IMG/VR virus record: IMGVR_UViG_3300032782_000002
DNA from: a virus
Lineage: Duplodnaviria; Caudoviricetes
Direction: 5' to 3' (one strand)
DNA: 64,000 nucleotides
The position numbers were made by a program, and so were the translations under genes. The notes beneath the pieces were generated by a model. It did no database searches and was not told the DNA's origin. It saw only the letters and a list, made by a program, of their open reading frames with translations. Each line of letters begins with the position of its first letter. Within the stretch, counting starts at the first letter, position 1. Of this stretch, positions 8,518 to 60,599 are shown piece by piece.

Positions 8518-8523
8518 GATCAG

Positions 8524-8608: not shown

Positions 8609-8612
8609 GTAG

Positions 8613-8698: not shown

Positions 8699-8704
8699 AA
8701 GTCG

Positions 8705-8790: not shown

Positions 8791-8795
8791 AACAG

Positions 8796-8867
8796 TCAGA
8801 GCGGCGGGATTCGAACCCGCTCTACGTGCTCCCCGAGCACGTGTGCAACCGGTAACACTTCGCTCTG
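8796..8867 (-). tRNA. tRNA-Pro(GGG), C33
   Basis: CGTGC-TC GGG GA-GCACG; C1-G72, A73. Confidence 0.9.
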
Positions 8868-8895
8868 ATGGGGCGCTCTTGCGAGCGCCCACCGT

Positions 8896-9453: not shown

Positions 9454-9505
9454 GGATCACCTTCGCCTTCGTTGCTTGTACCTGCTCATGGTTGTTCTCC
9501 TGTAG

Positions 9506-9577
9506 TGGGCGCACGTGGAATTGCACCACGACCTGCCGCTTATCAGACGGCTGTCCAGACTACTAGACTATACGCCC
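9506..9577 (-). tRNA. tRNA-Ile(GAT)
   Basis: GCCGT-CT GAT AA-GCGGC. Confidence 0.9.
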
Positions 9578-9578
9578 G

Positions 9579-9654
9579 TGGTACGGGGCAGCGGGATCGA
9601 ACCGCTCAGGACCGGCTTGTCGAGCCGGCGTCCGCACCAGCGAACATGCCCCGT
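9579..9654 (-). tRNA. tRNA-Val(GAC), C33, encoded CCA
   Basis: CCGGC-TC GAC AA-GCCGG. Confidence 0.88.
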
Positions 9655-9676
9655 GTGGATGTGGTAGAAGGAATGG

Positions 9677-10189
9677 ATGTCGATCGTCGTCACGCCGCTG
9701 AGCATCGACAATCCCGACGCGGACATCGGTGCCAGCGTCATCGCGGACGTCGCGGGCGGCGAGACGATGATCTACGAGACGCCGACCGACGACGGCGAGC
9801 TACGCCGCATCCGCGAGATCGGTGTCACTACCGACAGGCCGATCGTTGTCTTCCTGCGCCGCAAGGACGCTCAAGGCATGCAGCTGCGTCGCGTCGGGGT
9901 TGGTCAAGGCGGCACCATCCTCTGGCGCATGGCACCGGAGGAGCCGTGCATCGCGACGAGGGGGAGCCCGCTGCAGCTCTGCGTCGACTCGAAAGAGCAC
10001 ACCGACGTAACCCAGATCACCGCCCACGTGTACTGGGATGCCGTCGCCCGCCCCGCCTTGGTCGAGGAGGCCACCAGGGCGCTGCGTGAGCTGGAAGCGG
10101 GCGCCGTCGTCGAGTGCACCGCCGTGGAGTCGAACCACCATGCCGAGCCGTTCATAGGGCGGCCCCCGGAGCCCGTCCGGGCTAGGTGA
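9677..10189 (+). CDS. Hypothetical protein antisense to the tRNA array
   Basis: Coding-like composition; last ~25 codons overlap a tRNA on the other strand. Confidence 0.6.
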   Translation: MSIVVTPLSIDNPDADIGASVIADVAGGETMIYETPTDDGELRRIREIGVTTDRPIVVFLRRKDAQGMQLRRVGVGQGGTILWRMAPEEPCIATRGSPLQLCVDSKEHTDVTQITAHVYWDAVARPALVEEATRALRELEAGAVVECTAVESNHHAEPFIGRPPEPVRAR

Positions 10190-10195
10190 CGGTGC
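10115..10195 (-). tRNA. Atypical tRNA, anticodon TAT (Ile?)
   Basis: Acceptor GCACCGT/GCGGTGC, canonical T arm, loop CC TAT GA, enlarged D region. Confidence 0.6.
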
Positions 10196-10199
10196 GTAG

Positions 10200-10267
10200 T
10201 TGGACGCCAGGGAATCGGACCCTGCGCTGCTCCGTGTGAGAGAGCTGCTCTCGCCAGATAGCGTCCA
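10200..10267 (-). tRNA. tRNA-Val(CAC), shortened D arm
   Basis: GCTCT-CT CAC AC-GGAGC. Confidence 0.7.
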
Positions 10268-10273
10268 GTGAAG

Positions 10274-10343
10274 TCGCAGCGAAGGGACTCGAACCCTAGA
10301 CACAACGCGTATGAAACGTCGGCCTCACCTTGAGGGCGCTGCG
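10274..10343 (-). tRNA. tRNA-Met/Ile2(CAT)
   Basis: TT CAT AC loop; canonical T arm. Confidence 0.75.
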
Positions 10344-10344
10344 G

Positions 10345-10417
10345 TTGCGGGGGCCGTGTTGCACCGGCGTGGCCAGGGTTATGAGCCGTGGTCGGGACTA
10401 AGTCCACCCTCCCCGCG
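10345..10417 (-). tRNA. Initiator-like tRNA-fMet(CAT)
   Basis: CGCGGGG acceptor with C1:A72 mismatch; CT CAT AA loop. Confidence 0.85.
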
Positions 10418-10418
10418 G

Positions 10419-10490
10419 TGTCCTCGGAAGGAATCGAACCTTCATCGCTGGTTCCGTAGACCAGAGCCTTATCCGTTGGGCTACGAGGAC
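10419..10490 (-). tRNA. tRNA-Arg(ACG)
   Basis: CTGGT-CT ACG GA-ACCAG; canonical cloverleaf. Confidence 0.95.
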
Positions 10491-10514
10491 AGATGATGCG
10501 TGACGTTGCGCAGT

Positions 10515-10757
10515 TTACTCTGCCGTGCCTTCGCGCACGGCTTGCTTGTCGAGCTGACGGCCTTCCTTCGCGGCGAGGCGCGTCCACAGCTTGCGGTTGC
10601 GGCGCAGGATCTTATCCGTCGAGCCGAACGCCCGCCGCTGGGCCAGGAGCCATCCGTGGTGGTCGCTGCGAGGGCGTACCGTGGGTACCTTGCGGGCCCC
10701 GGCTTTCTCGACGCCAGGGTGATCGCCAGCGGTCGGGTGCTTGTTCGAGCGGGACAT
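10515..10757 (-). CDS. Small basic protein within the tRNA array
   Basis: 80-aa Arg/Lys-rich ORF filling the gap between two tRNAs. Confidence 0.55.
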   Translation of the reverse strand: MSRSNKHPTAGDHPGVEKAGARKVPTVRPRSDHHGWLLAQRRAFGSTDKILRRNRKLWTRLAAKEGRQLDKQAVREGTAE

Positions 10758-10774
10758 GGCGTCGAGCCTACCAG

Positions 10775-10843
10775 TGCCTCCGGACCGAGTCGAACGGTCA
10801 TGACCAAGATTCGTATTCTCGGCACCAGTCCCCTGGCGGAGGC
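10775..10843 (-). tRNA. Second tRNA-Arg(ACG), atypical D arm
   Basis: CGAGA-AT ACG AA-TCTTG; canonical T arm. Confidence 0.7.
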
Positions 10844-10844
10844 G

Positions 10845-10878
10845 TCTCTTCGCCGGGAGTCGAACCCGGACACGGCTT
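10845..10878 (-). pseudogene. Orphan tRNA 3' half (Arg-like)
   Basis: T arm CCGGG-TTCGACT-CCCGG plus acceptor strand CGAAGAG-A; no matching 5' half nearby. Confidence 0.7.
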
Positions 10879-10981
10879 TGCCCGACAAGTCGCGCCTGCC
10901 CGACAAGTCCCCCGGCTGCCCGGTAATTGCGCGTAGCGTTACCGTAGACCGTCCGTGCGGTAGTGGGATACGACGGGGGCC

Positions 10982-11623
10982 GTGCCCATCGATCGCGCTA
11001 GGCCGGAGCCGTCGAAGTTCAACTCCAAGCTCTCTCTGCCATACCAGCTCCGCATCGACGACTTCAAGCTGGCGATGCAGGACATCTACGACTTCTTCTA
11101 CGACGTGAACAACCTGCTCGCGTCGAAGGGTCTCGCCCGCCTGGACGACATGCTGCGTCCCGCGGGCATGTCCGGGCTTCTCTCCGACATGCTGACGGCC
11201 AGCCTCTCCAAGCACTCGCGGACGCTGACGGAGAACCTGCACCACAACGGGCACCCGGACCTCATCGTGCGAGGCAAGTATCCCAAGAACGCCATCGAGT
11301 CCGGGACGGACGGTGTGGAGATCAAGACGACCCGAAAGAAGGGCGGCGCCGTGGACACGCACGGAGCACGGGACCAGTGGATGTGCGCCTTCGTCTACGC
11401 CGTGGACAACAGCACCGAACCCGCGGTGGATCGGCGTCCGATGATGTTCACTGAGGTCTACCTGGGACATGTCACGAAGTCCGACTTCCGAAAAAACCCA
11501 CGCGGGGAGCTGGGGACGCGCACGGCGACGCTCGATAAGGACGGTATCGCTAAGCTCCGCGTGAGCTGGCTTTACCTCGACGAGAAAAAGGAAGAACGAG
11601 ACTTGAAGAAGTGGCGCCGCTGA
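10982..11623 (+). CDS. Putative Type II restriction endonuclease
   Basis: HPDL...VEIK PD-(D/E)XK motif; convergent with the DNA methyltransferase. Confidence 0.7.
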   Translation: MPIDRARPEPSKFNSKLSLPYQLRIDDFKLAMQDIYDFFYDVNNLLASKGLARLDDMLRPAGMSGLLSDMLTASLSKHSRTLTENLHHNGHPDLIVRGKYPKNAIESGTDGVEIKTTRKKGGAVDTHGARDQWMCAFVYAVDNSTEPAVDRRPMMFTEVYLGHVTKSDFRKNPRGELGTRTATLDKDGIAKLRVSWLYLDEKKEERDLKKWRR

Positions 11624-12521
11624 CCTCGATGCGGGCGAGGCGGGGGATTGCTTCCGCTGCCGTGGCGAAGTACGTCGCGTCCAGTTCGATGCCGATGCTC
11701 TGGTAGCCGATCGACTCGGCAGCGGCGATGGTCGAGCCGCCGCCCATGAATGGGTCGAGTACGATGCCCTCGCCCAACGGCAAGGATGCCCGCACGAGCT
11801 GGCGCATGAGCGCTTGTGGCTTTAGCGACGGATGAGGGGCGATGCTGCGCTCCCAGCGTCGCGTCGGGGCCGATTGGATCACGTCGGAGAACGGCTGGTC
11901 CGCTGAGATGCGCCGCAGCGCCCCAGCCTTCCACTTACGGAGGTTGTCCTGTACGCGCCCCTCGACGGGCTTGCGAAACAGTCCCCACGGTTCCCAGCCC
12001 GACCGCGGCATCACAGTCACGTCGTCGAACTCCTCGTGCGCGTTCTTCGGTCGGTCGCCACCGCGAAGTGTCTGGACGAGACGGATGATCTCGCCACGCT
12101 TCTCGAAACCCGCCTCGATGAACGGTCCCCACGTCACGTGTGAGAGCAGAGGATTCGATGCGATAAAGACGTGGCCGCCTGGGACTAGGACGCGCATGGC
12201 GCCCTCAGCTAGCCGCACGAAGAAGTGGCGCAGGGCCACCTTGTCCGTATCGGTCAGCACCGTGAAGCGCGGGAGCGGGCTGCGCTCGTGGCCGTCGAAC
12301 GACGGGGGGATGCGCCACACGCCACCGCGCCCCTTACGGAGCTTGCCCTTCTCTTCGTCCGTGTACTCCTTCACACCGTAGGGCGGATCGGTCACGATGG
12401 CGTGGATCGACTGCGGAGCCCGCTCAGCCATCCACACGAAGCAGTCCGCGTTGTGGATCGTGTAGCGGCCATCGCTGAGAGAGCGTCCCGTTCGGACGGT
12501 GACGGCAGCTCTCGCCTTCAC
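11550..12521 (-). CDS. DNA methyltransferase, N6-adenine/N4-cytosine, beta class
   Basis: VTDPPY precedes HPSLKP and LDPFMGGGST; probable GTG start at 12521. Confidence 0.92.
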   Translation of the reverse strand: MKARAAVTVRTGRSLSDGRYTIHNADCFVWMAERAPQSIHAIVTDPPYGVKEYTDEEKGKLRKGRGGVWRIPPSFDGHERSPLPRFTVLTDTDKVALRHFFVRLAEGAMRVLVPGGHVFIASNPLLSHVTWGPFIEAGFEKRGEIIRLVQTLRGGDRPKNAHEEFDDVTVMPRSGWEPWGLFRKPVEGRVQDNLRKWKAGALRRISADQPFSDVIQSAPTRRWERSIAPHPSLKPQALMRQLVRASLPLGEGIVLDPFMGGGSTIAAAESIGYQSIGIELDATYFATAAEAIPRLARIEVSGATSSSLVLPFSRRGKASSRGA

Positions 12522-12675
12522 GACGCGGCCCCGTCGTGCGCCTGGCGCACAGCGCCAGTAACCCGGATCCGCGACCCCACAACCACCGTTCTTTTCGGCG
12601 TCGTATGGCGCGGCCCACAGACCATCCACACCTGAACACACACGGCTTTTCCACCGGGGTTGCGCACAGGTTGTC

Positions 12676-12864
12676 CTACTTCTTCCCGGCTGCTTGGCGC
12701 GGGACATCCCAGTGGACCGACTTGCACTTGGGACAGAGCTTCGGCCGCACGTCCTCTGCCGCCATCCCACGCGGCACGTTCTCCGCCCGGGGCCCTCGCG
12801 CCTGCCATTCGTGCCCGCACCGCTCGCAGCGGTAGCCGGGCACCTTCATCGTGATGCTCGCCAT
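12676..12864 (-). CDS. Small zinc-ribbon protein divergent from the transposase
   Basis: CERCGHEW...CPKCKSVHW. Confidence 0.75.
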   Translation of the reverse strand: MASITMKVPGYRCERCGHEWQARGPRAENVPRGMAAEDVRPKLCPKCKSVHWDVPRQAAGKK

Positions 12865-12921
12865 ACCCAGGGACCTTACGCACGAATTACTCCACGGTCA
12901 AGGTTTCTTTGCCGGTAAGCC

Positions 12922-12950
12922 TTGACGAACTTACCTAGCCGGGTAATAAT
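12922..12950 (+). promoter_or_regulatory. Transposase promoter (leaderless mRNA)
   Basis: TTGACG-17 bp-AATAAT, 6 nt before ATG 12957. Confidence 0.6.
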
Positions 12951-12956
12951 AGGTGC

Positions 12957-14069
12957 ATGGTTGACGCGCGGCAAGAGAAGGGGCGGTCCCTGGCTAGGGA
13001 CAAGCGGATCCGCAAGGTCGAGGGCGCGACGTGGTACGTGCCCTCCGAGTCCAAGAACGAGGGCGGCTACCTCGTGAACATGCTCGGGCAGACCTGCTCG
13101 TGCCCGGACCACGAGACCCGGATGTGCAAGTGCAAGCACATGTGGGCGGTGGAGTTCGTGCAGACCGTCGAGGTCGCGGCGGACGGCTCCGCGACGATGA
13201 CCGAGACGGTCAAGGTCACGCGGAAGACCTACGCGCAGGACTGGCCGGCCTACAACGCCGCGCAGTGCGCCGAGAAGGAGACTGCCGCCGTCCTGCTCCG
13301 GGGCCTCTGCGACGGCATCCTGAGCCCGCCCCAGGCCGGCCGTGGGCGTCCCCGCACGCCGCTCTCCGATGCCGTGTTCGGGATGGTCACGAAGGTCTAC
13401 ACGACCGTCTCGGGACGGCGCGCCTCGACGGACCTTGAGGCGTGCGCCGAGGCAGGCCACATGCGCAAGGCCCCCAAGTACAACACCCTGTTCGACTACA
13501 TGGAGAAGCCCGAGCTGACGCCGCTGCTCACGCGGCTGGTCGAGGAGAGCGCCGCACCGCTGGCGTGCGTCGAGACGCAGTTCGCGGCCGACTCCACCGG
13601 CTTCTCCACCGTGACCTACCGCCGCTGGTACGACGCCAAGTACGGCCACGAGATGAAGGAGCACGGCTGGATCAAGGCGCACGCGATGGTCGGCACGACC
13701 ACGAACGTCATCACCGCGATCCGCGTGACCGACTCCGACGCGCACGACGGCCCCGAGCTTCCCGGGCTGGTCAAGGCGACCGCTCAGCGGTTCACCATGG
13801 GCGATGTCTCGGCCGACAAGGCGTACCTGTCCCACGCGAACCTTGCTGCCATCGAGGCCGCGAACGCCGTCCCCTACATCCCGTTCAAGTCGAACAGCAA
13901 GGGCGCTGGCCCGGCCGCGTGGCGTCGCATGTGGGGCCTGTTCATGTACCGGCTGGAGCCGCACCCTGCGGCTTCACCTGCACTGCTCCGGATGGAGCAT
14001 GGAGCGGATCGCGGGAATCGGACCCGCCTGGTGCTGCTTGGAAGGCAGCTGCGGCGCCTTGCCGCCTGA
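12957..14069 (+). pseudogene. SWIM zinc finger plus DDE (IS4/IS5-like) transposase, C-terminally truncated near 13951
   Basis: CSCPDH..CKCKHMWAV (SWIM), ADSTGF, ADKAY; no third catalytic Glu region; the tail is translated antisense tRNA sequence. Confidence 0.8.
13951..13981 (-). pseudogene. Orphan tRNA 5' half (Gly-like)
   Basis: GCAGGTG-AA-GCCG CAGGGTG CGGC-T-CCAGC, then transposase sequence. Confidence 0.55.
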
Positions 14070-14074
14070 TCCGC
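14000..14074 (-). tRNA. tRNA-Gly(TCC), encoded CCA
   Basis: GCTGC-CT TCC AA-GCAGC; U73. Confidence 0.9.
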
Positions 14075-14078
14075 ACGG

Positions 14079-14149
14079 AGCCACGTGTTGGATTCGAACC
14101 ACCTCGCTCGCTTACAAAGCAAGTGCATCGCCGCAATGCTTCACGTGGC
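14079..14149 (-). tRNA. tRNA-Thr(TGT)
   Basis: CTTGC-TT TGT AA-GCGAG. Confidence 0.82.
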
Positions 14150-14154
14150 GTCAG

Positions 14155-14226
14155 AGCCGACGAGGGGAGTTGCACCCCAGCCCGTCCCCGTACCAAGGGG
14201 AAGCACCACTCCGGTGCTGCATCGGC
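14155..14226 (-). tRNA. tRNA-Thr(GGT)
   Basis: TCCCC-TT GGT AC-GGGGA. Confidence 0.88.
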
Positions 14227-14230
14227 GTGC

Positions 14231-14297
14231 CAGGAGGTCAGGACGACCCTTGCGGGTGGCGACCTCCCACTTCCCGAGCCGTGAGGCTCGCGTCCTG
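14231..14297 (-). ncRNA. Pseudoknotted structured RNA abutting the tRNA-Ala 3' end
   Basis: Two crossing 7-bp helices plus two tetraloop hairpins. Confidence 0.55.
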
Positions 14298-14368
14298 TGG
14301 ACCTGCGGGGAGTCGCACCCCTGACGACCGCGCGTGCAAAGCGCGTCGGCTGCCTCCAGCACAAGCCC
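14298..14368 (-). tRNA. tRNA-Ala(TGC)
   Basis: G3:U70; CGCGC-TT TGC AC-GCGCG. Confidence 0.85.
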
Positions 14369-14374
14369 GAGCAG

Positions 14375-14445
14375 TGGACCGAGCCGGAATCGAACCGGCA
14401 TCTCTGGCTTGCGACGCCAGCATCTTCCCGTTAGACGATCAGCCC
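14375..14445 (-). tRNA. tRNA-Ala(CGC)
   Basis: G3:U70; CTGGC-GT CGC AA-GCCAG. Confidence 0.9.
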
Positions 14446-14446
14446 G

Positions 14447-14517
14447 TGGAGCGCGCGGGAATCGAACCCGCATTCCGAGACTGCCAGCCTCGTGTCCTCC
14501 CGTTGGACGAGCGCCCC
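14447..14517 (-). tRNA. tRNA-Ala(GGC)
   Basis: G3:U70; CGAGG-CT GGC AG-TCTCG. Confidence 0.92.
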
Positions 14518-14749
14518 GTTGTACTATCAGCCCGAAGACGAACCGCGACGACTCTCGGTCACGCTACGCAGCAGACCACGCCGTAGTCCTTCAGCTTCGA
14601 CCGCCTTGAACTCGCGCCGCCACCGCCTGCCGTGCATGCGCGACACCGGATGGTCCGGATCGATTCGAACAGGTGGTATGTCAGCTCCTCGTAGCGACGC
14701 AGGAGCCGCCCGTCAGATAGGTCGCGAGCGGCCATGCGAACGAGTCTAG

Positions 14750-14820
14750 CACCGGGCGAAGGAATCGAACCTTCTCGACGCGGGTTTTGGAGGCCCGCCG
14801 GCGACCATCGCCTGCCCGGC
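14750..14820 (-). tRNA. tRNA-Trp(CCA)
   Basis: CT CCA AA loop; G73. Confidence 0.85.
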
Positions 14821-14826
14821 ATGAAG

Positions 14827-14898
14827 CGCCTCGTAGGGGACTCGCACCCCTCTCACTCCATAGACAGTGGAGCTGCGACACTCGTCGCATCACGAGGC
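14827..14898 (-). tRNA. tRNA-Asp(GTC)
   Basis: CTCCA-CT GTC TA-TGGAG; G73. Confidence 0.88.
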
Positions 14899-14972
14899 AA
14901 GAGCGGCGACAAGAATGGCGGAGACGAACTTTTCCATGGTGTAGTCCCCACCGCATTCGCCGCGATCATCAG

Positions 14973-15045
14973 CCTCCTCGCCGCGAGTCGAACGCGGAGC
15001 ACGCGGTTTAGGAAACCGCAGCCGGGGATCCGCCCGGACGAGGAG
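14973..15045 (-). tRNA. tRNA-Arg(CCT)
   Basis: GCGGT-TT CCT AA-ACCGC. Confidence 0.85.
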
Positions 15046-15129
15046 AGGCGCAGCCGGCGAGCACGGTCGCATAAGTCGAACACCCCGAAGGGCACCCGGA
15101 TCGTACGCGCGGACATCGCTGCTGCGCGG

Positions 15130-15203
15130 GGTGAGTAGCCGGAGTCGAACCGAGCTTCGGCGGGTTCACAGGCCGCCCTCGTTACCGAACGAGTACACCC
15201 ACC
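15130..15203 (-). tRNA. tRNA-His(GTG)
   Basis: G-1:C73; CT GTG AA loop. Confidence 0.88.
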
Positions 15204-15216
15204 ATAACAGTTGCAG

Positions 15217-15291
15217 TCAGGGAGGCCGGAGTTGCACCGGCACCTTCCGCTTCCAGAGCGGGGATGCTGAGCTGTTGAACACTACTCCCTG
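15217..15291 (-). tRNA. tRNA-Pro(TGG), C33
   Basis: C1-G72, A73; TC TGG AA loop. Confidence 0.82.
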
Positions 15292-15292
15292 G

Positions 15293-15366
15293 TCAGTGCG
15301 GCCGGATTCGAACCGGCACTACTCGCTCCCGAAGCGAGGGTGCTACCGTTGGGACACTACGCACTG
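15293..15366 (-). tRNA. tRNA-Pro(CGG)
   Basis: CTCGC-TT CGG GA-GCGAG. Confidence 0.92.
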
Positions 15367-15483
15367 ATTGGCGGCGCTTTCGCCGCTGTCACCCCTGTTC
15401 GTTCCCTTCGCCCGCCGACCGAGGATGCGTCGCGTTGGCTAGCCCGCGTGCTTCCAGGCACTCTGAGGGGCTCGGGTTCTGCG

Positions 15484-15558
15484 TGCACGGCCGTCGAATC
15501 GAACGACGTTCTTCCGCTCTTCAGGCGGACGCTGAATGACCACACTAGCTCGCCGTGC
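15484..15558 (-). tRNA. tRNA-Phe(GAA)
   Basis: TCCGC-CT GAA GA-GCGGA. Confidence 0.9.
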
Positions 15559-15565
15559 ATTGTCG

Positions 15566-15637
15566 TACACCGTACGGGAGTTGCACCCGCCTCGCGAGCT
15601 TGAAAGGCCCGCCGCCACACTCGCTGCGTCACGGTGC
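15566..15637 (-). tRNA. tRNA-Glu(TTC)
   Basis: CGGGC-CT TTC AA-GCTCG. Confidence 0.85.
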
Positions 15638-15641
15638 GTAG

Positions 15642-15714
15642 CGCCCCCACTGGGAATCGAACCCAGCTCTCCTGATTGAGGGTCAGGTGACTTGAGCCTC
15701 TGGTCGATAGGGGC
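15642..15714 (-). tRNA. tRNA-Glu(CTC), C33
   Basis: CCTGA-CC CTC AA-TCAGG. Confidence 0.88.
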
Positions 15715-15788
15715 GTTATGTTAGAAAAGGCCGGTTGCCTTGAACATGGCCGCGACCTGCGCGGTCTTGTTCAAGCAAGCTGCCATAG

Positions 15789-15857
15789 AGCCGGATGAGG
15801 GAGTTGCACCCTACCTGCGCGGAGTACGAACCCGCGATGGTCCTCGACCGATCCGGC
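15789..15857 (-). tRNA. tRNA-Thr(CGT), short D arm
   Basis: GCGGG-TT CGT AC-TCCGC. Confidence 0.78.
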
Positions 15858-15861
15858 GTAG

Positions 15862-15934
15862 CGGTGCGTGGAGGAATCGAACCTTCCTGTCGGCAGGCTA
15901 ACAGTCTGCTGCTGGGCCATTCAGCTTACGCACC
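15862..15934 (-). tRNA. tRNA-Asn(GTT)
   Basis: CT GTT AG loop; G73. Confidence 0.85.
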
Positions 15935-15940
15935 ATGAAG

Positions 15941-16013
15941 CTCCGGGAAGAGGAATCGAACCCCTGCAGGACTCGTGAACAGCGAGTTGCCCAAGCCATC
16001 AGGCGCTCCCGGA
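15941..16013 (-). tRNA. Second tRNA-Asn(GTT)
   Basis: ACTCG-CT GTT CA-CGAGT; U1-A72, G73. Confidence 0.85.
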
Positions 16014-16103
16014 ATTGCGCGGCGTCTTACGAGACAGCCCGCGCGTCTTCACACACGAACACGGAGAGGCACCATGCGCCCGTTCGGGTCGCCGCCACGT
16101 CCG

Positions 16104-16123
16104 TTCAAGTTTTCAGGGAGCAA
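16104..16123 (-). promoter_or_regulatory. boxA-like antitermination element
   Basis: TTGCTCCCTGAAAACTTGAA resembles the rRNA-operon boxA (GCTCTTTGAAAACT-like). Confidence 0.5.
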
Positions 16124-16144
16124 AGCGTGGCTGCCGCCATCGCC

Positions 16145-16220
16145 TGGTTGGGGCTGAGGGAATCGAACCCCCATAAGCAGGGTCAGAGACTGCTGTCCTA
16201 TGCCATTGGACGAAGCCCCA
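16145..16220 (-). tRNA. tRNA-Gln(CTG), encoded CCA
   Basis: U1-A72; CT CTG AC loop. Confidence 0.92.
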
Positions 16221-16221
16221 G

Positions 16222-16293
16222 TGCGCTCGGACGGAATCGCACCGTCACCTCAACGGGTAAGAGCCGCGTGTGCTACTTTGACACTACGAGCGC
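16222..16293 (-). tRNA. tRNA-Lys(CTT)
   Basis: CT CTT AC loop. Confidence 0.85.
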
Positions 16294-16301
16294 GCGTCAC
16301 G

Positions 16302-16374
16302 TGGGCCCGGAGGGAATCGAACCCTTCACCTCATCGGGTAAAAGCCGAGTGTGCGACCGTTACACCACGAGCCC
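16302..16374 (-). tRNA. tRNA-Lys(TTT)
   Basis: CT TTT AC loop; canonical T arm. Confidence 0.9.
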
Positions 16375-16433
16375 CTGATCTCCTTGGTTGGGCTCGCGTT
16401 TGGTTCTGCGGATCATCGTCGCTCTCGTCTTCG

Positions 16434-16515
16434 TGTAGCGGGGTGGAGTCGAACCACTCGCCGTAGGCCACGGTTTTACAGACCGCTTGGGCATGCCCTG
16501 CCCTCGTCCCGCTAC
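16434..16515 (-). tRNA. tRNA-Tyr(GTA)
   Basis: GCGGT-CT GTA AA-ACCGT; long variable arm. Confidence 0.85.
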
Positions 16516-33703: not shown

Positions 33704-36376
33704 TCACGCTTCGATCTCCTCGGCATTGGGGTCGGCGGCTTGCTTGGCCTTCATGCGCTCGTACAGACCCTTGAGCACCTGGACGGGCGTCTTGTCGCCG
33801 CCCTCCAGATCCCTCTGCAGGCCGTCGCTGCTCTTGCCGACGCTGTCCTTGAAGTCGCTCATCTTGCGGATGATGGTGTCGCGAATCAGCTCGTCGGCCG
33901 TGCCGCGCGCGACGACGTACTGGAAGAGCGTGCGCATCTGCTGGCGGAAGCGGTGCATGCGGCCCTCCCACTGCACCAGCTTGCTCGGCACGTACGGCAG
34001 CTCGGCGCAGATGCCGATGTTGGCGTAGGTCAGGTCCAGGCCCACGCCCATCGAGTCGATGGTCGCGCAGAGCACTGTGGGCTTGGCCTCGATGATGGCG
34101 CGCCTCTTGGCGGCCCCGACTTCCCCGTGGATGACCTGCGCGTCGACGCCCTCGCCACGCAGCGCGTCCGCCAGCTGCTCGGCCACGATCTTGCGCCACG
34201 TGCCGATGACGATCTTGCTGCCCGCCTCGGCGTGGCTGTACGCGAGCGACGCGACGTCGTTGAGCTTGCCGTCGGCCGCCATGTCGAGCGCGCGGCGCAG
34301 CGACTCGTCGTTCTGCAGCGCGACGGCCATGGAGAGCTGGAAGCGCCGCTCCACGTCGACCTCGATGATCTGCCGCGTACGCGGCGGAAGCTGCATGCCG
34401 ACGTCGTCCTTGGTCCGGCGCAGCATGAAGAACGACAGGCGACGCTGTAGCTCCGGCAAGTCCGAGCTGCCCTTGGTGTTCCACACGACGCGCTCGGCGC
34501 TGATGCGCTCTTGGAAGGCCCCCGTGTGCTTTTTGTAAAAGGCGAATGGTGCGCCGAATCGGCCTTCGCTCATCACGTTGATGGGCGCCCAGAGATCCCG
34601 CGGGCGGCTCGTCATCGGCGTCGCCGACAGCAGCATGCGGCTCTCAGCCAGCTTCGCGAGCTTCTCGGCCGCGCGCGTGCGCCGGGCCCGGTCGCCCATC
34701 AGCATGTGGGCCTCGTCGAAGATGATCGTTCTGGCACCCCACGCGAGCAGGATGTCCGTCCAGGCGTAGAGGATGTCGTAGTTGATGATGACGATCTGGA
34801 TGTCGCCGTCGGGCTTGAGCAGCTGCGCCTGCTCGTACGTGTCGCGCGCAGCCTTCGAGGGCGGCTTGACGCCGGTCGTCTCGATGATGCGCTTGAGCTG
34901 CCCCTTGTTGTCGGCGGTAGCCTTCGCCAGTGCGATGGTGTCGAGCGCCATCTTGGTGTTGGCCAGATCCTCGGGGCTCGTCTGAACGCCGGTCAGCACG
35001 AGCACCTTCTGCCCCGGCCATCCGGCGGGGGTCGGTGGATCGAGCTTCGCGTCACCTTCGAGCCCCGTGACCCAGACGCCCTTGAGGAATGTCGGGCACA
35101 CAATGATGGTGCGCCCCCGTAGGGCGCGCGCTGCGCGAAGCGCCTGTACTGTCTTACCGCAGTTGTGGACGACGATGCCGTCGGCAACGAAGTTGCGGTG
35201 CGGATCGGCGCAGACGATGTCGTAGACATGCGTCTCGCCGTCCGGACGCACGCGGACCACACGTTCCTTGTGGGGGAAGAACACGACCTCCCCGCCTTTG
35301 CCGCCGATGCCGCCGTGCAGATGACGGAACTTCTCTTCCTCACCGTGCAGCTGCGCGTGCACGCTCTTGGTCATCAGTTCGAGGTTCGCGAGGCGGTTGT
35401 CGTCCTTGATGCCGTTCTTGTGGTGGACGATCTCGTCATCGGTAAGGTACCGCCGGAGGTGGGCCTCCATGACGAGCCGGTGTTCGGGAACGCGCCCACC
35501 AGCCCGCGGTGGGTGATCGTGCATGCCGCTGACGAGGACGTACCCGTCCGCGTCGTAGTGGCGGCCGCCGATGGATGTCGGCTTCGTGCGCAGGTGGCGG
35601 TAGATACACGTGCGACAGTGCCCGGTGAACCGCGGTCTGGATGGATACGACGGGGTAGTAGTGACGCCCTTGGTGGATCCGCACCGACGGCATCGTGCGC
35701 GGCCGTTGGCCAGCACGTACTGGCCTGGGCGTAGGGTGTCGGCTCTCACGAAGCCGTCAGGTGTTCCGATCTCGTGATCGGGTGTGACGCGGATCGTCTT
35801 GCCCGAGTCGAGTTCGACGCGCACGACTGCTCGCACACCACGATCGACGACGTCTCGGATCGGGTGCAGGCGCAGTGTGTCCCCGCAGAGCGAACGCACG
35901 TAGGTCGGAATGGACGGGCGCCACGTCTTGCCGCCGTGGCTCTTGCCGCCGTGGAACTTGTGGTGGAGGGCCGCGAGCTTGATGACGAAGCTCTTTGCGG
36001 CGCGGCTTACACGCACGGTGGCCTCGCCGTCAACGCAGCCGACTTCGTCGGCGAGGAACGCGCCCTCGCCCGAGTGCACGACCAGGAACTTGACGCCGTC
36101 CTTCTGGTAGTCGCGCAGATCCGTGAACGAGATGGGCGCCAGCACGTTCTTCGGGATGGCGCCGGGCGACGGCAGCCGGCTCATGTCGATGCGCAGCTTC
36201 TTGGCGGCGATGCGCCGCGCGGCCGCGTCCACCGCGTCCACGTAGCCAACCCACGCCTTGCGCTCGGCCGCCCAGTGCAGGCCCGGTGTGGCCTTGCACT
36301 CCTCGCGCACGGTGGGGCTGTAGATCGGCGTGTGGATGCCCCACTCACTGCCGCCGTAGTGTCGTACGAGGATCAT
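33704..36376 (-). CDS. SNF2/HARP-like DEAH helicase containing an intein
   Basis: LRDYQ, LADEVG|CGKT, IIFDEAH, LSATP, LRRTK, QWEGRMHR. Confidence 0.92.
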   Translation of the reverse strand: MILVRHYGGSEWGIHTPIYSPTVREECKATPGLHWAAERKAWVGYVDAVDAAARRIAAKKLRIDMSRLPSPGAIPKNVLAPISFTDLRDYQKDGVKFLVVHSGEGAFLADEVGCVDGEATVRVSRAAKSFVIKLAALHHKFHGGKSHGGKTWRPSIPTYVRSLCGDTLRLHPIRDVVDRGVRAVVRVELDSGKTIRVTPDHEIGTPDGFVRADTLRPGQYVLANGRARCRRCGSTKGVTTTPSYPSRPRFTGHCRTCIYRHLRTKPTSIGGRHYDADGYVLVSGMHDHPPRAGGRVPEHRLVMEAHLRRYLTDDEIVHHKNGIKDDNRLANLELMTKSVHAQLHGEEEKFRHLHGGIGGKGGEVVFFPHKERVVRVRPDGETHVYDIVCADPHRNFVADGIVVHNCGKTVQALRAARALRGRTIIVCPTFLKGVWVTGLEGDAKLDPPTPAGWPGQKVLVLTGVQTSPEDLANTKMALDTIALAKATADNKGQLKRIIETTGVKPPSKAARDTYEQAQLLKPDGDIQIVIINYDILYAWTDILLAWGARTIIFDEAHMLMGDRARRTRAAEKLAKLAESRMLLSATPMTSRPRDLWAPINVMSEGRFGAPFAFYKKHTGAFQERISAERVVWNTKGSSDLPELQRRLSFFMLRRTKDDVGMQLPPRTRQIIEVDVERRFQLSMAVALQNDESLRRALDMAADGKLNDVASLAYSHAEAGSKIVIGTWRKIVAEQLADALRGEGVDAQVIHGEVGAAKRRAIIEAKPTVLCATIDSMGVGLDLTYANIGICAELPYVPSKLVQWEGRMHRFRQQMRTLFQYVVARGTADELIRDTIIRKMSDFKDSVGKSSDGLQRDLEGGDKTPVQVLKGLYERMKAKQAADPNAEEIEA
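35162..36037 (-). mobile_element. Intein with HNH homing endonuclease (292 aa)
   Basis: Starts CVDGEA; block B TPDH; ends VYDI...NFVADGIVVHN|C; internal EHRLVME...VHHKNGIKDDNRLANL. Confidence 0.92.
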
Positions 36377-51472: not shown

Positions 51473-53087
51473 GACGGCTCTCGCAGAGCGCGGCGCAGCG
51501 CGCGCCGTGCGGCGTGGCGGTCTCGCCGATGGAGTATCCGGCGCACGGCGGCGCTCGGACGCATCTTGCGCAGGCTCGTCGGGATCACGAGTCGAGATCG
51601 GCATCGGGATCTCCGATGGCCGCCTCCGTGGTGTCGAAGAGCTGGATGATGTACTGGTTCATTCGCTGGCGCAGGATGAGCAGCGCCTGGCGCAGCGTCT
51701 TGGGCTCGCGCGTGATGCGCCGGTAGCCGCGCTTGAACATCACCTCCACGTGGAAGGTGGTGGGCTTGCCGGTGAGCAGCCGCGCGATGCCCACGGACCC
51801 GGTGCTGTGGTCGGGCGTGGCGCACACGAGACGCGGCGGGCACGAGACCAGCTGCGCGAGGTTCATCAGCGCGAGTTTGTCGAGGACGGAGAGCTTCTTG
51901 GGGGTCGTCATGCGGGCTCCTGGTTGAGGTCTACTTGCGCCACTCGTTGTCGCGGGCCAGCATCGCGGCGCGCTCCGGCGTGCCGTGCATCGCTTGGAGC
52001 TTCATCAGCTCGGAGCACGGCTTGCAGTTGGGCGCGTGGCCCATGTGGCTCCAGCGATGCAGCCGATCGCCGCCGCGGCACTGTTTGCCGTGCGGGCACT
52101 TGTGTGGGTGGCTGCCCCGGTTGCCGCTGACGCGACCGCCGACCGGGTAGTGCGCCACGATCCGTCCGCAGACGTGACACGGGCGCTTCGTGTGCTCGGC
52201 GGCCATGGCTACCGGGGCCCCACGATCGGCGCGAGGGCCGCGATGACGGCGCGCGCCTCGTCCTCGGTGTTGGCGACGAGACTGATGCGGATGCCCTCGG
52301 CCTCGGCCTCGAACTTGAGTCGGCCCTCGTAGATCGTGCGCTTTGGCCGCTTGCGCCCCACGATCCGCGCGATGCCCAGGGCGTTGGCGTCGCGCCTGGC
52401 GTAGCGCGCCTCGTCCCGCTCGCGCTCGGCGGCCCAGCGCTCTTCGTCCGCGCGCTGGCGTGCGACGTCGGCGACGAGCGCCTGGGCGATGGCCTCGACG
52501 TCGAGGCTGTCGTCCTTGCGCACCTTGAAGAGGCGCAGGCCGCCCGGCTCGTTGATGCGCCCGCGCCCGACGTTCACGTGGCTGACGCGGTCCGGGCCGC
52601 GGATGTAGCCGCGCATGCGTGGCTCCCAGCGCGGGCACTTGCCGTTGACGGTCGCGATGCGCCCGTTTGGTGCGATCTCGACGACGGCGCCGGCCGCGAT
52701 GAGCGCGGTTTGGATGCGAGTGATCAGCTCTTCGTAAGTCATGGCGCCATGGTCTCCGGGCGGTTGTGCACGACGAGGCTCGCCCTCGCCGGCCAGGTGT
52801 TGATCGAGATCTCGCCGCGCTGCTCGCGCAGGATGACGATGGCCGCCTCGACGAGCGGCTCGCATGCGACGCGGTAACCAAACGCCGGGTGCGCGGCGAC
52901 GGCCAGCGGCTCGGCGAGCCACGTGGTCGTGGACGGCATGCCCGGGTCGCCGTCGAGCGCGCACGCGTGCTGCGTGCAGACGCGGGCGACGACGTCGCCG
53001 CGCTCGTCCAGGGCGATCTCGTCGACCGAGGCTGGGCAGCGTGTGCCGTCGTTGAAGTCGCAGCGGGCGATGTCGATCATGGTTTAG

Positions 53088-53154
53088 GGGGCTGGCGGGG
53101 AGTCGAACCCCGCGAGGGCGGCGGAACCCCGCGCGCCCTCGAACCGTCCAGCCC
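53088..53154 (-). ncRNA. D-armless tRNA-like RNA
   Basis: Acceptor GGGCTGG/CCAGCCC, T arm CGGGG-TTCGACT-CCCCG, long central hairpin with a 4-nt loop. Confidence 0.7.
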
Positions 53155-53162
53155 TGGGTCTG

Positions 53163-54071
53163 CTACTGGCCGGCCGTCGCGAGGGCGGCCGTCGCTACGG
53201 CGGCGCGGGTCTCGTCGATGACGGCGCGCAGCTCGTCGAGCTTGCCACCGAGCAAGCCCTCGTACGCCGCGACGCGCTCCAGCAGCGACGCGGTCTCTTT
53301 CTCGCGATTGGCCAGGGCCCGCTCGCCCATGTCGCCGTCCGCGATGTCGTCGGCGATCTTGTTGCACGCCTGGCGCGTGGCGTCCGTCAGCGAGGCCAGG
53401 ATGGCCTCCGCCGCGTCGGAGCTGCGCATCGCGGGGATGACGTGCACGCGGTGCTTGCTGCACGCCTGCAGCGCCTTGACGATCTTGTTCCACTTGTCGA
53501 CCGAGAATTGCGGCAGGAAGTAGACGCCCCCGCGATCCCGCAGCGCCACGGCCTTGAGCGCGGTCAGCTTGTCACAGAGCCACGTGCCGATGTCCGACGG
53601 CGCCAGCGTGTGGCGGGCGACCTCGTACGCGGCGCGGATCTGCTCGGCGCCCTGCCCCTCGATGGTCAGCGTCTCGACGCCGGCCTTGTCCCGCTCGACC
53701 TTCGCCTCGCAGGCGATGGGGTACTGCAGCGTCTTCTTGCCGTCGACCTCGACCTCGGTCGGCTTGCTGACGATGGCCCAGCTGCCGCGCGCCTTGTGGT
53801 GCACGTCGAGGTGGCCCAGCGTCTTGGCGACGGCGTCGACGGCCCGGTGCAGCGCCACGAGCGCGCTGGGCTCCTCGGGCGGCAGCGCGTGGCTCGTGGC
53901 CGCGATGAGCGCGGCGGCGAGCGCGCTGCTCGTCACGTCGCCCTGGTTGCTCCACATGACGATGCGCCCGCAGGCGCGCTTGTCGATCTCGTTCTGCGGA
54001 TCGATGGCGATGACGGTGCCGCCGGTGGAGAGCGACGGCTTCGCGGGCGTGGAGACGGTGGTTGCGTTCAT
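53163..54071 (-). CDS. Hypothetical protein (DUF6744/DUF3150-like) of the AAA-vWA module
   Basis: G.IVMW...AVALRDRGGVYFLP...YEGLLG pattern; operonic with the vWA and AAA genes. Confidence 0.6.
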   Translation of the reverse strand: MNATTVSTPAKPSLSTGGTVIAIDPQNEIDKRACGRIVMWSNQGDVTSSALAAALIAATSHALPPEEPSALVALHRAVDAVAKTLGHLDVHHKARGSWAIVSKPTEVEVDGKKTLQYPIACEAKVERDKAGVETLTIEGQGAEQIRAAYEVARHTLAPSDIGTWLCDKLTALKAVALRDRGGVYFLPQFSVDKWNKIVKALQACSKHRVHVIPAMRSSDAAEAILASLTDATRQACNKIADDIADGDMGERALANREKETASLLERVAAYEGLLGGKLDELRAVIDETRAAVATAALATAGQ

Positions 54072-54095
54072 GGTGGTTGGTTGTCCTTCTCTTCT

Positions 54096-55337
54096 TCAGG
54101 GGTGGTTGTGTTGCGTAGCGATGTCGCTGGCGTCGATGACGTCAGCCCAGGGGGGCGGTGTGCCGTATCCCTGGCGAGTGAGTACGACGACGACGGGGCA
54201 GTTGGGGGGCGTGGCCGGCCAGCCGGTGCCGCCGTCGGTCACGACGACGATCACGTCGGCGCCCGTCTGCTCGGCGCACTCGATGCCGACGCACATGTTC
54301 GTGCCCCCGCCTCCGCGCAGCGCGTCGCGCAGGTCGTCGATGTGCGCGATGTCGACCGGCTCGGCAGCCTGCGTGTCGCAGCCTAGCGCCTTGACCGTGC
54401 CAAGGACCTGGACGGCATCCCAGACGACGCCGATCACCTTGCCGATGTCGGTGTCGTCCATGCTGGCGCTCGTGTCGCCGACGATCGTGACGTTGGCGCG
54501 GGGCGTCCGGTGCACGGGCAGCACGAGGCCCCCGTTTTCCCGGCGCGAGGGCCGCGCGTAGCTGGCGACCGGCCCCAGGCGCGTCTCGATGTGGTAGCGC
54601 ACCCGGCCCGCGATCATGTCGCGCCAGTCGATGTGCGGCGGCGCCAGGAACTCCTCGGCCCAGCGCAGCAGACCCGCCGCGACGTTGCCCGGCTGGCCCT
54701 TGTGGTGCTCGCGGATGGCGTGCGCCACCTGGACGCGCACGATCTCGGTCTCGGCCTCGGTGAGGCCCTTGGGTCCCTTGGTCGGGTCGGGCGGCAGCTC
54801 CCACGGTCCGGGAACGCCGGTGACCCCGGATCCCCCGCTGCACATGGCGCCCCCGCCGTCCTTGCCGTCGTCGTCGAGGCGGTAGTACTCCTCCGCCGAC
54901 TTGTGCGCCGGCCAGCCCAGCCGCTCGGGGGTCAGATCCTTGCTCCAGATCTTGATCCCGGCGGCCTGGATGTCCTGCACCAGCTCGCAGTCGCCGCACT
55001 TGTTCCACTTGGCGTGGTTGACGGCGCGGAAGGCGATGCCGCGCGTCCTGTGACGGCGCAGCGTGTGAAGGCACTCGTGGATGACGCCGGTGATGAGGCA
55101 CTCGAAGTCCTCGGCCATGCACTCGGCGATGTGCGCGGGGTTGACGTACACCCGCCACCGATCGTCGATGGCCATCGTCGGCACGGCGTCCGTCAGGATG
55201 TACTGGCAGGCGTACAGGCCTTTGGCCAGATAGGGCAGCTTCTTCGTAGCCCACCAGCGGGCTTTGATCAGCAGCTCCATCGGCGTCGGGCCGCCCCGGG
55301 TTACCGGGCGGGCAGCGGCGGCGGCGGGTGTGGTCAT
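54096..55337 (-). CDS. DUF2201-type metallopeptidase plus vWA domain protein
   Basis: TMAID, IHECLH (HExxH), GDTSASM MIDAS, GGGGT, VTDG. Confidence 0.88.
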   Translation of the reverse strand: MTTPAAAAARPVTRGGPTPMELLIKARWWATKKLPYLAKGLYACQYILTDAVPTMAIDDRWRVYVNPAHIAECMAEDFECLITGVIHECLHTLRRHRTRGIAFRAVNHAKWNKCGDCELVQDIQAAGIKIWSKDLTPERLGWPAHKSAEEYYRLDDDGKDGGGAMCSGGSGVTGVPGPWELPPDPTKGPKGLTEAETEIVRVQVAHAIREHHKGQPGNVAAGLLRWAEEFLAPPHIDWRDMIAGRVRYHIETRLGPVASYARPSRRENGGLVLPVHRTPRANVTIVGDTSASMDDTDIGKVIGVVWDAVQVLGTVKALGCDTQAAEPVDIAHIDDLRDALRGGGGTNMCVGIECAEQTGADVIVVVTDGGTGWPATPPNCPVVVVLTRQGYGTPPPWADVIDASDIATQHNHP

Positions 55338-55353
55338 GGGTGTCGGGCTCCTC

Positions 55354-56481
55354 TTACTGCGCCAGCAGGGTGGCCATGCGGGGCGTGTACTTCGCCATCA
55401 GCACGTGCGGCCGGGTGAGCTTGGTCACGGCGTTCTTGTCGCGCTTGGCGACGTCCCGGTAGTGGGTGACGAGCATGTCGCCGCCGACCACCGCGGCGTC
55501 GAACCCGCCGGTGTCCGTGACGTGCCCCATGATCTCCCAGGCGGCCGCCCAGCGCTTCTCGGTGAAGTCACTCTGCACCGCGGCCACGACGGCCGTCAGC
55601 GCGGCGATGGAGCGGTCCACGCGGTCCGCCTCCAGGGTGATGCTCTTCGGGTCCGCGAGCCACGCCTCAGCGTCGACGAGGTCGGCGTCCGTGCAGTAGG
55701 CCATGAAGGAGATGGCGGCGCCCTCGCCCACGCATCCGCTCAGCAGCGCGAGGCGGTCGTCGACGCTGTAGCCGAGTGACGCCGCGACGGCGTACACCTT
55801 CTCGGCGGCCTCCCACGATCGGGGGCTCGGCCACGCCTTGCCCGCCAGGGTGGGATCGTCCGGCTCGTTGTCGAGCATGTCCGGCATTCGCTTGATGAAC
55901 GCGCTCGCCAGGGCCTTGACCTTGGTGAGCGCGCGAGACTGCTCGTCCGCGTCTGGCGTCGGGAAGTCGGCCTCGTCGGCGGCCCAGCCGACCAGCTGCG
56001 CCTGCGCCCACGCCTGCGGGTTGGCCGGCACCTGCAGGTGGCAGAACCGGTTGGCGGCGGCGCTGCCCAGCGCGCGCGCGCTCTGGCCTCGCTTGACCGG
56101 GTTGCCGGCGGCGACGACGGCGACGTACTCCGGCGGCGCGTCGATGCGGTCCAGGGCCGCGTTCTCGGTCTCGCGCGTGGCCCGGTTCAACTCGTCGTAG
56201 AAGGCGATGCCGCCCTTGACCTTGCGGGCCTCGATGACGAGATCCTCGATCTCGGGCGGATCGCAGACGATGACGCGGCCCTCGTGGTAGACGCGGGGCT
56301 TGAGGTCGATGGGCTCGCAGCGGCTCAGCAGCCAGCGCTTGTAGTGCCGGCCGGTGATGCGCGCGTACGCCTCGGTGCGGCTCGTCTTGCCGGTGCCAGG
56401 GCCGCCCTCCATGTAGACGGGCACCAGCGCCGTGACGCAGGCGTGCAGACGGCGCATGATCGGATCGGGGTGAAGGTTCAT
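55354..56481 (-). CDS. MoxR-like AAA+ ATPase
   Basis: GGPGTGKT, FYDELNRA, AAGNP, ANRFCH, PSPRSWE. Confidence 0.9.
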   Translation of the reverse strand: MNLHPDPIMRRLHACVTALVPVYMEGGPGTGKTSRTEAYARITGRHYKRWLLSRCEPIDLKPRVYHEGRVIVCDPPEIEDLVIEARKVKGGIAFYDELNRATRETENAALDRIDAPPEYVAVVAAGNPVKRGQSARALGSAAANRFCHLQVPANPQAWAQAQLVGWAADEADFPTPDADEQSRALTKVKALASAFIKRMPDMLDNEPDDPTLAGKAWPSPRSWEAAEKVYAVAASLGYSVDDRLALLSGCVGEGAAISFMAYCTDADLVDAEAWLADPKSITLEADRVDRSIAALTAVVAAVQSDFTEKRWAAAWEIMGHVTDTGGFDAAVVGGDMLVTHYRDVAKRDKNAVTKLTRPHVLMAKYTPRMATLLAQ

Positions 56482-58756: not shown

Positions 58757-58912
58757 CGCGGGCCCGGTTGCAGCGGCTGCACCGGGTAGTCGGGAGGGAT
58801 CTCGTGCATCGGTGGTGTCTCCGGTTGAGATTCAAGGCGCAAGGGCGGCCGCGTCGTGTGGACGCGGTCGCCCTCGCGGGCGAGCGGTGTGCTCGCCGGC
58901 TCGGGTGTCGTG

Positions 58913-59302: not shown

Positions 59303-60599
59303 GGCGGTTGGATCCTTGGTTGGTTGGTGAGTCGGGCGCACAAGGCGCGACCGTCCAGGCGGACGGTCGTGCCCCGCGGACGCGACCTCAGGGGATGACG
59401 TTGCCCTCGGCGTCGAAGTCCTCCGCGCGCCAGTCGCCGCGCTCGCGGCGGCGGTCGCGCCAGTAGCGATCGGAGGCGACCGTCTCCGGGTGGTCGCCCG
59501 GATCGGTGTCGTACAGCGGCGCGTCGTCGTTGCCGCGCGTAGACTGCCGCGCCTCGGGCGCACGGGTCGCGACGACACCGATCGTCGGATGCCGGACCCG
59601 CAGCGTGGGCTGCGTGTCGACCACGATGCGGTCGCCTACGAGCCGCTCACTGGCGAGCATGTGCGCGCCGCCGTGCTTGGGCGCGCCCGTGTCGAGGCGC
59701 GGCCGGACGAGCACAAGCGTGCCCTTCTTGCCGCTGCGCCGCGTGCTGCCGTCGACGCTCGTCATGCGCGTCTGTGCGACGCGCGCGCCGAACGTGGGCG
59801 CGCCGTCAACCTGATGCGGGGTGTGCCCCGCGTACGCGCTGGCGCGCGGGCCGTGCGTCACGATGACGTCGGCGCGCATGTCGTCGCGCTTGTCCGCGGC
59901 GAGCGCGATTGCTCGCGCCGCCTGTGCCTCCTGAAACTTCCGCTTGGCGTATCTAGGCATCGCGGTCGACACCCGAGCCGACTAGCTCGTGCGTCGACCG
60001 CGACGGGCGGGGTACCAGAGGAGAGGCATCGTCCCGCACGCGGCCTTGACCTTGCGGTCCGGCGTACGCGCGCGGCGCGACGCTGCGGTGTGCGGCGTCA
60101 CTCCTCATTGTCCCCGCCTGTTGCGGCGGCTTTGCCCGTCCTTCCCCGGTGGTGTGCCGGTCTCGCCTCTCGGCGAGCGGCCTGTGCCACTGCAGCGCCC
60201 CGACCGCGACCTCGACGCCGGCCGCGCGCTGCCGCCTACAAGCGCGCCGTACTGGCCGCGGTAGGTGGGGCAGCGCGCGGGCCGTCGCGAGTGACGGTAT
60301 CCGCGCTAGGGTACTCACCCCGGCCGTGTCCGGCGCGCGCCTCCTTTTGGGCACGTGCGCATTGCACCGTCCGGTGCGGGGTGTGCGTTGAGCTGGTCAG
60401 CCCGGATGGCCGGGGCGGATCGCCTGCCGGCGCACGCGCGAGGGCCGCGTGCGCCCGACGATCCACCGTCCCGCGCGGCACTGGCGTGGCGCGCGGCTCG
60501 GGTCCGGGTCGGTGAAGGGGGCCGCATGCCGGCGCGCGCACCATGCGCGCGGGGGAACGGACCGCACCAGGCGCCAACCGGCGCCGCCCCCGCCGACCG

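Follow-up and report, generated by a model that had tools for sequence, protein, structure and literature searches.

What is a tRNA-shaped sequence doing between two protein-coding genes of a virus that keeps its tRNA genes elsewhere? The question is raised by a 64,000-nucleotide stretch of DNA (Duplodnaviria; Caudoviricetes; IMG/VR record IMGVR_UViG_3300032782_000002; hereafter the window, meaning this whole stretch), in which a 67-nt tRNA-shaped element (66 nt plus a discriminator C) occupies positions 53088-53154 of the minus strand. It has no D arm and no anticodon, and lies between the gene for a DUF6744 protein, the last of a conserved three-gene module, and a gene for a 113-aa protein. 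By analogy with the t-elements of plant mitochondria, we give an even chance to the reading that the element is a tRNA-derived signal for RNase P/Z processing, from which a stable small RNA is released as well.

Anatomy and position of the element

The window is phage-like, has a GC content of 68% and carries 29 tRNA genes at 7.4-16.5 kb. This array ends at 16515, about 36.6 kb from the element, in agreement with the ~36 kb stated in an earlier model-made interpretation of the letters alone (the sequence-only reading). The tRNA-like layout and sequence described there were found as given, on the minus strand, with the following parts:

53148-53154, minus strand: 5′ strand of the acceptor stem, GGGCTGG; 100% complementary to 53089-53095
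53142-53147, minus strand: linker ACGGTT, replacing the D arm; read on by three bases, it gives GGTTCGA, a copy of the T-loop sequence
53113-53141, minus strand: hairpin replacing the anticodon arm; 8 bp, a bulged C, 4 bp and the loop GGTT; pair probabilities 0.84-1.0
53096-53112, minus strand: T arm, CGGGG/TTCGACT/CCCCG; contains the tRNA consensus GGTTCGACTCC
53089-53095, minus strand: 3′ strand of the acceptor stem, CCAGCCC; the partner of G3 is C70, not U70
53088, minus strand: discriminator, C
53085-53087, minus strand: trailer C74-T75-A76, with no encoded CCA; the same in 10 of the 29 tRNA genes of the window

All 24 of 24 pairs are Watson-Crick, and both the acceptor stem and the T stem, which had been called perfect, are indeed 100% complementary. 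The spacings also hold: the stop codon of the DUF6744 gene (TAG, 53163-53165) ends 8 nt before the element, and the next ATG, at 53080, follows 7 nt past the discriminator. The element thereby occupies an 82-nt gap in a tightly packed, co-directional operon, every gene from ~59960 to below 43000 being on the minus strand.

The tRNA-like fold has a computed energy of −46.3 kcal/mol, against −46.6 kcal/mol for the minimum-energy fold, and the difference is confined to the T-arm region; pair probabilities in the acceptor stem and the hairpin are 0.84-1.0, and the folding z-score of the element is −3.1. A strict scan of the window for a 7-bp acceptor stem (at most one G-U pair) with a 5-bp T stem containing G53-C61 and a TTCRA loop returned 17 sites in the tRNA array and a single site outside it, which is the element. 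Chance would supply a mean of 0.07 hits per window, as estimated from 30 Markov-simulated windows, and the perfect hairpin and the exact intergenic fit come on top of this rarity. The tRNA-shaped element is confirmed as real and as improbable by chance.

Trailer, origin and a proposed processing role

The 3′ flanks of the 29 tRNA genes (7429-16515, minus strand) share a uniform signature that suggests a common rule of 3′ processing: position 74 is C in 29 of 29, positions 74-75 are C-T in 17, C-T-A follows the discriminator in 10, and CCA is encoded in three. CTA makes up 0.55% of the trinucleotides on the element's strand; given this rarity, the C-T-A trailer of the element marks it as carrying the 3′ flank of the phage's genuine tRNAs. 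Two direct repeats lie within the element itself. The first, CGCGGGGTTC, is the 5′ half of the T arm and recurs at the top of the 53113-53141 hairpin, 19 nt away; the second, GGTTCGA, is shared by linker and T loop at a distance of 36 nt. A 10-nt repeat is reached in ~1% of composition-matched shuffles. The nearest of the phage's own tRNAs is tRNA-Ala(UGC), with which 25 of 32 acceptor and T-arm positions are equal. The internal repeats and this likeness together point to a tRNA-type gene that was probably rebuilt locally from its own T-arm sequence, rather than slowly decayed.

The tRNA array holds irregular sequences of its own. Two of 68 and 72 nt (10776-10843 and 9583-9654, both on the minus strand) have a perfect acceptor stem and T arm and are ARAGORN-negative; one has a 4-bp D stem, a 4-nt loop and an anticodon-like loop ATACGAA, and in the other the loop is TCGACAA, position 33 being C instead of U. 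An isolated perfect T arm (10853-10869, minus strand) is part of no called gene, and an HNH endonuclease gene (8896-9453, minus strand) also lies inside the array.

As a processing signal, the element would be a remodelled descendant of a phage tRNA-type gene that has lost the decoding parts and kept those read by the tRNA end-processing enzymes, namely the acceptor stem on the T arm, the T loop and a GG linker able to form the elbow. Transcribed within the long minus-strand operon, it would be cut by the host's RNase P at its 5′ end and by RNase Z, or an equivalent 3′ pathway, past the discriminator. These cuts would split the message of the ATPase/DUF2201/DUF6744 module from that of the lineage-specific genes downstream, shorten the leader of the 113-aa gene to 7 nt, outside the −46 kcal/mol structure, and free a stable, tRNA-shaped RNA of ~67 nt, possibly CCA-tailed. 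We infer that cleavage and CCA addition may take place, and that they may benefit the phage.

Among the functions offered by the sequence-only reading, that of an RNase P/Z processing signal is the best supported, by evidence of an indirect kind: the motif, the exact cistron gap, the tRNA-type trailer and the lack of a promoter or terminator. t-elements were found by the motif GGTTCRANYCC, their cleavage by RNase P and RNase Z creates mRNA ends, and they receive non-encoded C and A (PMC1920247), and RNase P cleaves model hairpins consisting of just an acceptor stem, a T stem and a T loop (PMC11143913). In the element, GGTTCGACTCC fits this motif within a non-canonical tRNA-like fold that sits where one cistron ends, 8 nt back, and another begins, 7 nt on; the same point separates a conserved module from genes without relatives. 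No sigma-70-type promoter and no intrinsic terminator was found near the element in a scan that was limited, for promoters, to the sigma-70 consensus; if expressed, it is part of a polycistronic RNA. The gene that follows is:

52739-53080, minus strand: gene for the 113-aa protein, first of the lineage-specific stretch; GC3 0.94 (coding-type), no Shine-Dalgarno sequence

A Shine-Dalgarno sequence precedes 24 of 30 genes of the operon. The 113-aa gene is without one, and 7 nt separate its start from a −46 kcal/mol structure; its translation would benefit from a processed 5′ end. Its protein has no relative among 5.8 billion proteins.

The closest parallel is with the plant-mitochondrial t-elements (Forner et al. 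2007, PMC1920247), which likewise combine a non-canonical fold with a GGTTCRANYCC T arm, lie in mRNA precursors beside coding regions and are dispersed as lineage-specific tRNA-like copies, the element being lineage-specific too. It differs from them in belonging to a bacterial virus, in being a single copy, in having a perfect GC-rich 12-bp hairpin rather than degenerate D and anticodon arms, and in that its processing is predicted. We propose that, in function, it could be their counterpart in a bacterial virus. If the cleavage is true, the element would show plainly how a bacterial virus can cut an operon transcript by means of a tRNA look-alike; cutting of this kind has so far been documented mainly in organelles and for vertebrate MALAT1. 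The weight of a single unconserved copy is, at present, modest.

Several points weigh against a processing signal. The base at −1 is A, where the phage's tRNA genes have C or T; no relatives were found in the collections searched, hence there is no covariation and no sign of selection beyond the perfect pairing; the 7-nt leader that cleavage would leave to the 113-aa gene is not truly leaderless; the promoter scan was confined to the sigma-70 consensus; and plain hairpins fill other structured gaps of the operon, so that a simple stabiliser role would fit the element as well. The last of these leads to the alternative that the element is a rebuilt tRNA-gene remnant, serving as a stable intercistronic hairpin that shields the upstream message from 3′ exonucleases, or serving nothing, with its likeness to tRNA a matter of history. 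The lack of relatives in any collection searched is in keeping with this, as are the internal duplications, which suggest recent slippage, and the plain strong hairpins of other operon gaps, one of which shares the outer stem GAGGGCG...CGCCCTY. Yet 24 perfect pairs, the T loop, G53-C61 and a tRNA-type trailer have all been kept; a plain stabiliser needs none of these tRNA features, and not all of them would have survived neutral decay. We consider this explanation fairly unlikely.

Very stable intergenic hairpins are found at 58817-58885 and 59331-59386 (both on the minus strand) of the same operon, one region having a z-score of −6.0. The three genes with neither a Shine-Dalgarno sequence nor translational coupling, which start at 58756, 53080 and 51472, each come after a structured gap; this arrangement fits a processing role and a simple stabiliser equally. 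A repeated hairpin family was considered and rejected, since what is shared is the outer stem at two loci, with 0.32 expected.

Comparison with tmRNA and other tRNA-like RNAs

Three features of a canonical tRNA are present in the element (7-bp acceptor stem, 5-bp T stem, 7-nt T loop), and two are replaced, the D stem-loop by the 6-nt linker and the anticodon arm with its 7-nt loop by the 12-bp stem with a 4-nt loop. A canonical tRNA was rejected on these last two counts, and ARAGORN did not call the element. No Rfam family was matched at threshold. The best match, to mascRNA-menRNA (RF01684), reaches 21.2 bits against a gathering threshold of 42.5 and involves the acceptor stem and T arm only, and membership of that family was rejected; within clan CL00001 the best match is to tRNA-Sec, with 15.8 of the 47 bits that its threshold demands. 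mascRNA and its MEN-beta counterpart are tRNA-like modules that end a longer transcript, and their excision by RNase P and RNase Z makes the ends of the neighbouring RNA. The element is like them in being a tRNA-like module with a matching acceptor stem and T arm; unlike it, they are vertebrate nuclear RNAs, and its score falls far under the gathering threshold of their family. The stable RNAs C and D of phage T4 (species 1 and 2) have tRNA-like ends, take no part in decoding and are not known to have a function; likened to the element by description only, they are 119-139 nt long and lie inside a tRNA cluster.

The layout had also been likened to the tRNA-like domain (TLD) of tmRNA, with the proviso that G3:U70 is absent, which is correct, as the element has G3:C70. 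A phage precedent for such a domain on its own is the TLD-only (tag-less) tmRNA attributed to mycobacteriophage DS6A (Mao et al. 2009, as cited in PMC4131195 and PMC11915505). This copy was located at JN698994 28479-28556 (L154:1500-1579 in our set), where it is unannotated in the GenBank record; it lies 11 nt past a stop codon, inside a gene cluster. A pattern scan of IMG/VR returned at least 76 distinct TLD-only mini-tmRNAs of 59-85 nt (L156-L272), and all among the matches listed have G3:U70, the TCGAC...GGAC junction, CTCCA and a conserved small inner hairpin, although the search pattern itself demanded TCGAC and CTCCA, so that the set cannot reveal variants without them.

As a description of layout, the comparison is fair. 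The element and the DS6A-type RNAs are alike in being phage-encoded RNAs of the ~60-85 nt class with an acceptor stem, a T arm, an unstemmed GG-bearing loop where the D stem would be and a helix that stands in for the anticodon arm, and both lie in intergenic gaps of co-directional genes. Membership, by contrast, fails on the identity pair, the junction and the profile scores. The element has G3:C70, C73 and the trailer CTA, against G3:U70, A73 and CTCCA; and the base of its hairpin is CGAG...CTCG, fully Watson-Crick, against the TCGAC...GGAC junction at the base of P2a. On a covariance model built from 18 TLD-only RNAs, seven held-out members scored 53-65 bits and the TLD-only mini-tmRNAs, including the DS6A copy, 53-76 bits, whereas the element scored 22.6 bits, within the 14-39 bits of the window's ordinary tRNAs. 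With the tmRNA family model RF00023, the DS6A copy reached 34.7 bits and a viral example (L072) 42.2 bits, and the element was not among the matches. An RF00023 'hit' in a related viral contig proved to be an ordinary tRNA-Met. The element also differs from the TLD-only RNAs, with their many relatives in uncultured phages, in not being conserved. We accordingly do not assign the element to the tmRNA TLDs. The comparison marks a boundary of the TLD-only mini-tmRNA family, in that a shared layout is insufficient for membership.

These data also bear on the alternative that the element is a tag-less, non-chargeable mimic of the TLD, whose excised RNA would bind SmpB and dampen the trans-translation of the host in the manner proposed for DS6A. 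The layout is the same (no D stem, GG loop, long helix, no variable region), the TLD-only model aligns to the element from end to end, and the first 16 nt resemble nt 2-18 of Rhodococcus tmRNA, with 15 identical and one 1-nt gap; the DS6A copy, 11 nt past its stop codon in a gene cluster, is similarly placed. ACGGTTCGAG is, however, also found in ordinary tRNAs as D-loop and D-stem sequence, and the C70 partner of G3, a discriminator C instead of A, the missing GAC...GGAC junction of P2a, the absence from the RF00023 matches and the low profile score make such a mimic rather improbable. One version of it, to which we attach a low probability, would have the element as a TLD that lost its alanine identity by a one-base register slip (loss of G1, U70 to C, and an extra basal pair) and now acts as an uncharged SmpB sponge. 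If true, this would add a second, non-aminoacylatable class of phage trans-translation inhibitor beside the DS6A-type RNAs.

An Ala-type tRNA-like sequence (G3:U70, A73) of 68 nt was seen at L323:7755-7822 (plus strand) and, identically, on the minus strand of L330; it has no D stem, a 7-bp stem and the 7-nt loop CTGAGCA. L323 and L330 are metagenome-assembled genomes labelled Eremiobacteraeota and Vulcanimicrobiota.

The sequence-only reading had further suggested a decoy for tRNA-targeting defences. Such an RNA would act in trans and divert or soak up a host factor that recognises tRNA by its acceptor end or its overall shape (for example, a CCA-modifying toxin or a tRNA-sensing defence). 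By its helix lengths (12 bp + 12 bp) the element would be a full-size L-shaped mimic, and the phage has a large stake in tRNA biology, as its 29 tRNA genes in the window alone show. But without an anticodon loop there is nothing for anticodon nucleases to cut and be distracted by, the element is not conserved in related phages, and nothing recognised as a defence or counter-defence gene lies beside it. The suggestion thus found no support, and we judge a decoy improbable.

The likeness to bacterial Y RNAs fared no better: no TROVE domain, and hence no Ro60 (Rsr) partner as in the YrlA system, occurs in the 16 neighbouring proteins scanned, where the VWA-like domain belongs to DUF2201, and no Y-RNA family is among the Rfam matches of the element up to an E-value of 10. 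Three further identities were considered and set aside. A histidine identity, as C73 might indicate, lacks G−1, the base at −1 being A; an intrinsic terminator lacks a U tract, and the terminator scan was empty; and an attP core does not agree with the presence of both acceptor strands, nor was an integrase seen among the scanned neighbours.

Conservation and the neighbouring ATPase module

Could the element belong to the genes that precede it? The module consists of the following genes:

55354-56481, minus strand: AAA+ ATPase; phrog_1297, with weak AAA_5/AAA_3 matches
54096-55337, minus strand: protein with DUF2201_N (putative metallopeptidase) and DUF2201 (VWA-like); a solid assignment
53163-54071, minus strand: DUF6744 protein of 302 aa, whose gene closes the conserved module upstream of the element; a solid assignment

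The label 'MoxR AAA-vWA/peptidase-DUF' given earlier to this operon stands for the DUF2201_N, DUF2201 and DUF6744 assignments, whereas MoxR is not established: the ATPase matches phrog_1297 ('ATPase') at 5e-38, and its match to Pfam AAA_5, at 20.9 bits, is under the cut-off of 22.

The DUF6744 protein has about 25 relatives. For comparison, 30 homologous AAA/DUF2201/DUF6744 loci totalling 173 kb were collected from metagenomes, IMG/VR, ENA, NCBI and Logan. A covariance model built from the single sequence of the element, ARAGORN and a structural scan found no tRNA-like element in any of them; the search for homologues and for their linkage to MoxR-DUF2201 loci, which the sequence-only reading had called for, thus gave neither. 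In most loci, among them those of the closest relatives (69%, 61% and 52% identity), the following gene overlaps the DUF6744 stop codon and leaves no space for an RNA gene, and the genes downstream of DUF6744 vary between loci.

Wider searches agreed. The covariance model found nothing in 100 further viral loci, in two whole related viral contigs, in four actinobacterial genomes or in 151 Actinomycetota genomes; megablast, tblastn and, against cultured phages, blastn returned nothing or fragments of the T arm only; and an exact 23-mer from the 3′ half of the element had no match in IMG/VR. The architecture pattern ACGGTTCGA...GGGTTCGANTCCC, run against IMG/VR and 185,579 species genomes, retrieved just ordinary tRNAs, tmRNA ends and TLD-only RNAs. 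As far as these sequence comparisons go, the element was inserted in this lineage alone, at the border of a conserved module, without a tie to the ATPase module.

That the element serves the AAA ATPase/DUF2201/DUF6744 module as RNA partner or substrate, as had been suggested for the AAA-vWA machine, is consequently very hard to sustain: adjacency alone, 8 nt past the last gene of the module, speaks for it, and the element is missing from 30 of 30 homologous loci, the 69%, 61% and 52% relatives included, an outcome named beforehand as counting against it.

Two observations concern inteins. In related large phages (L028:1-2401 and L029:3162-5576) the DUF2201 protein is ~800 aa long, and that of L028 has faint precomputed Pfam matches to intein and LAGLIDADG domains, which suggests a module gene invaded by an intein. 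In the window itself, a SNF2-type helicase gene (33704-36376, minus strand) is interrupted by an HNH-bearing intein.

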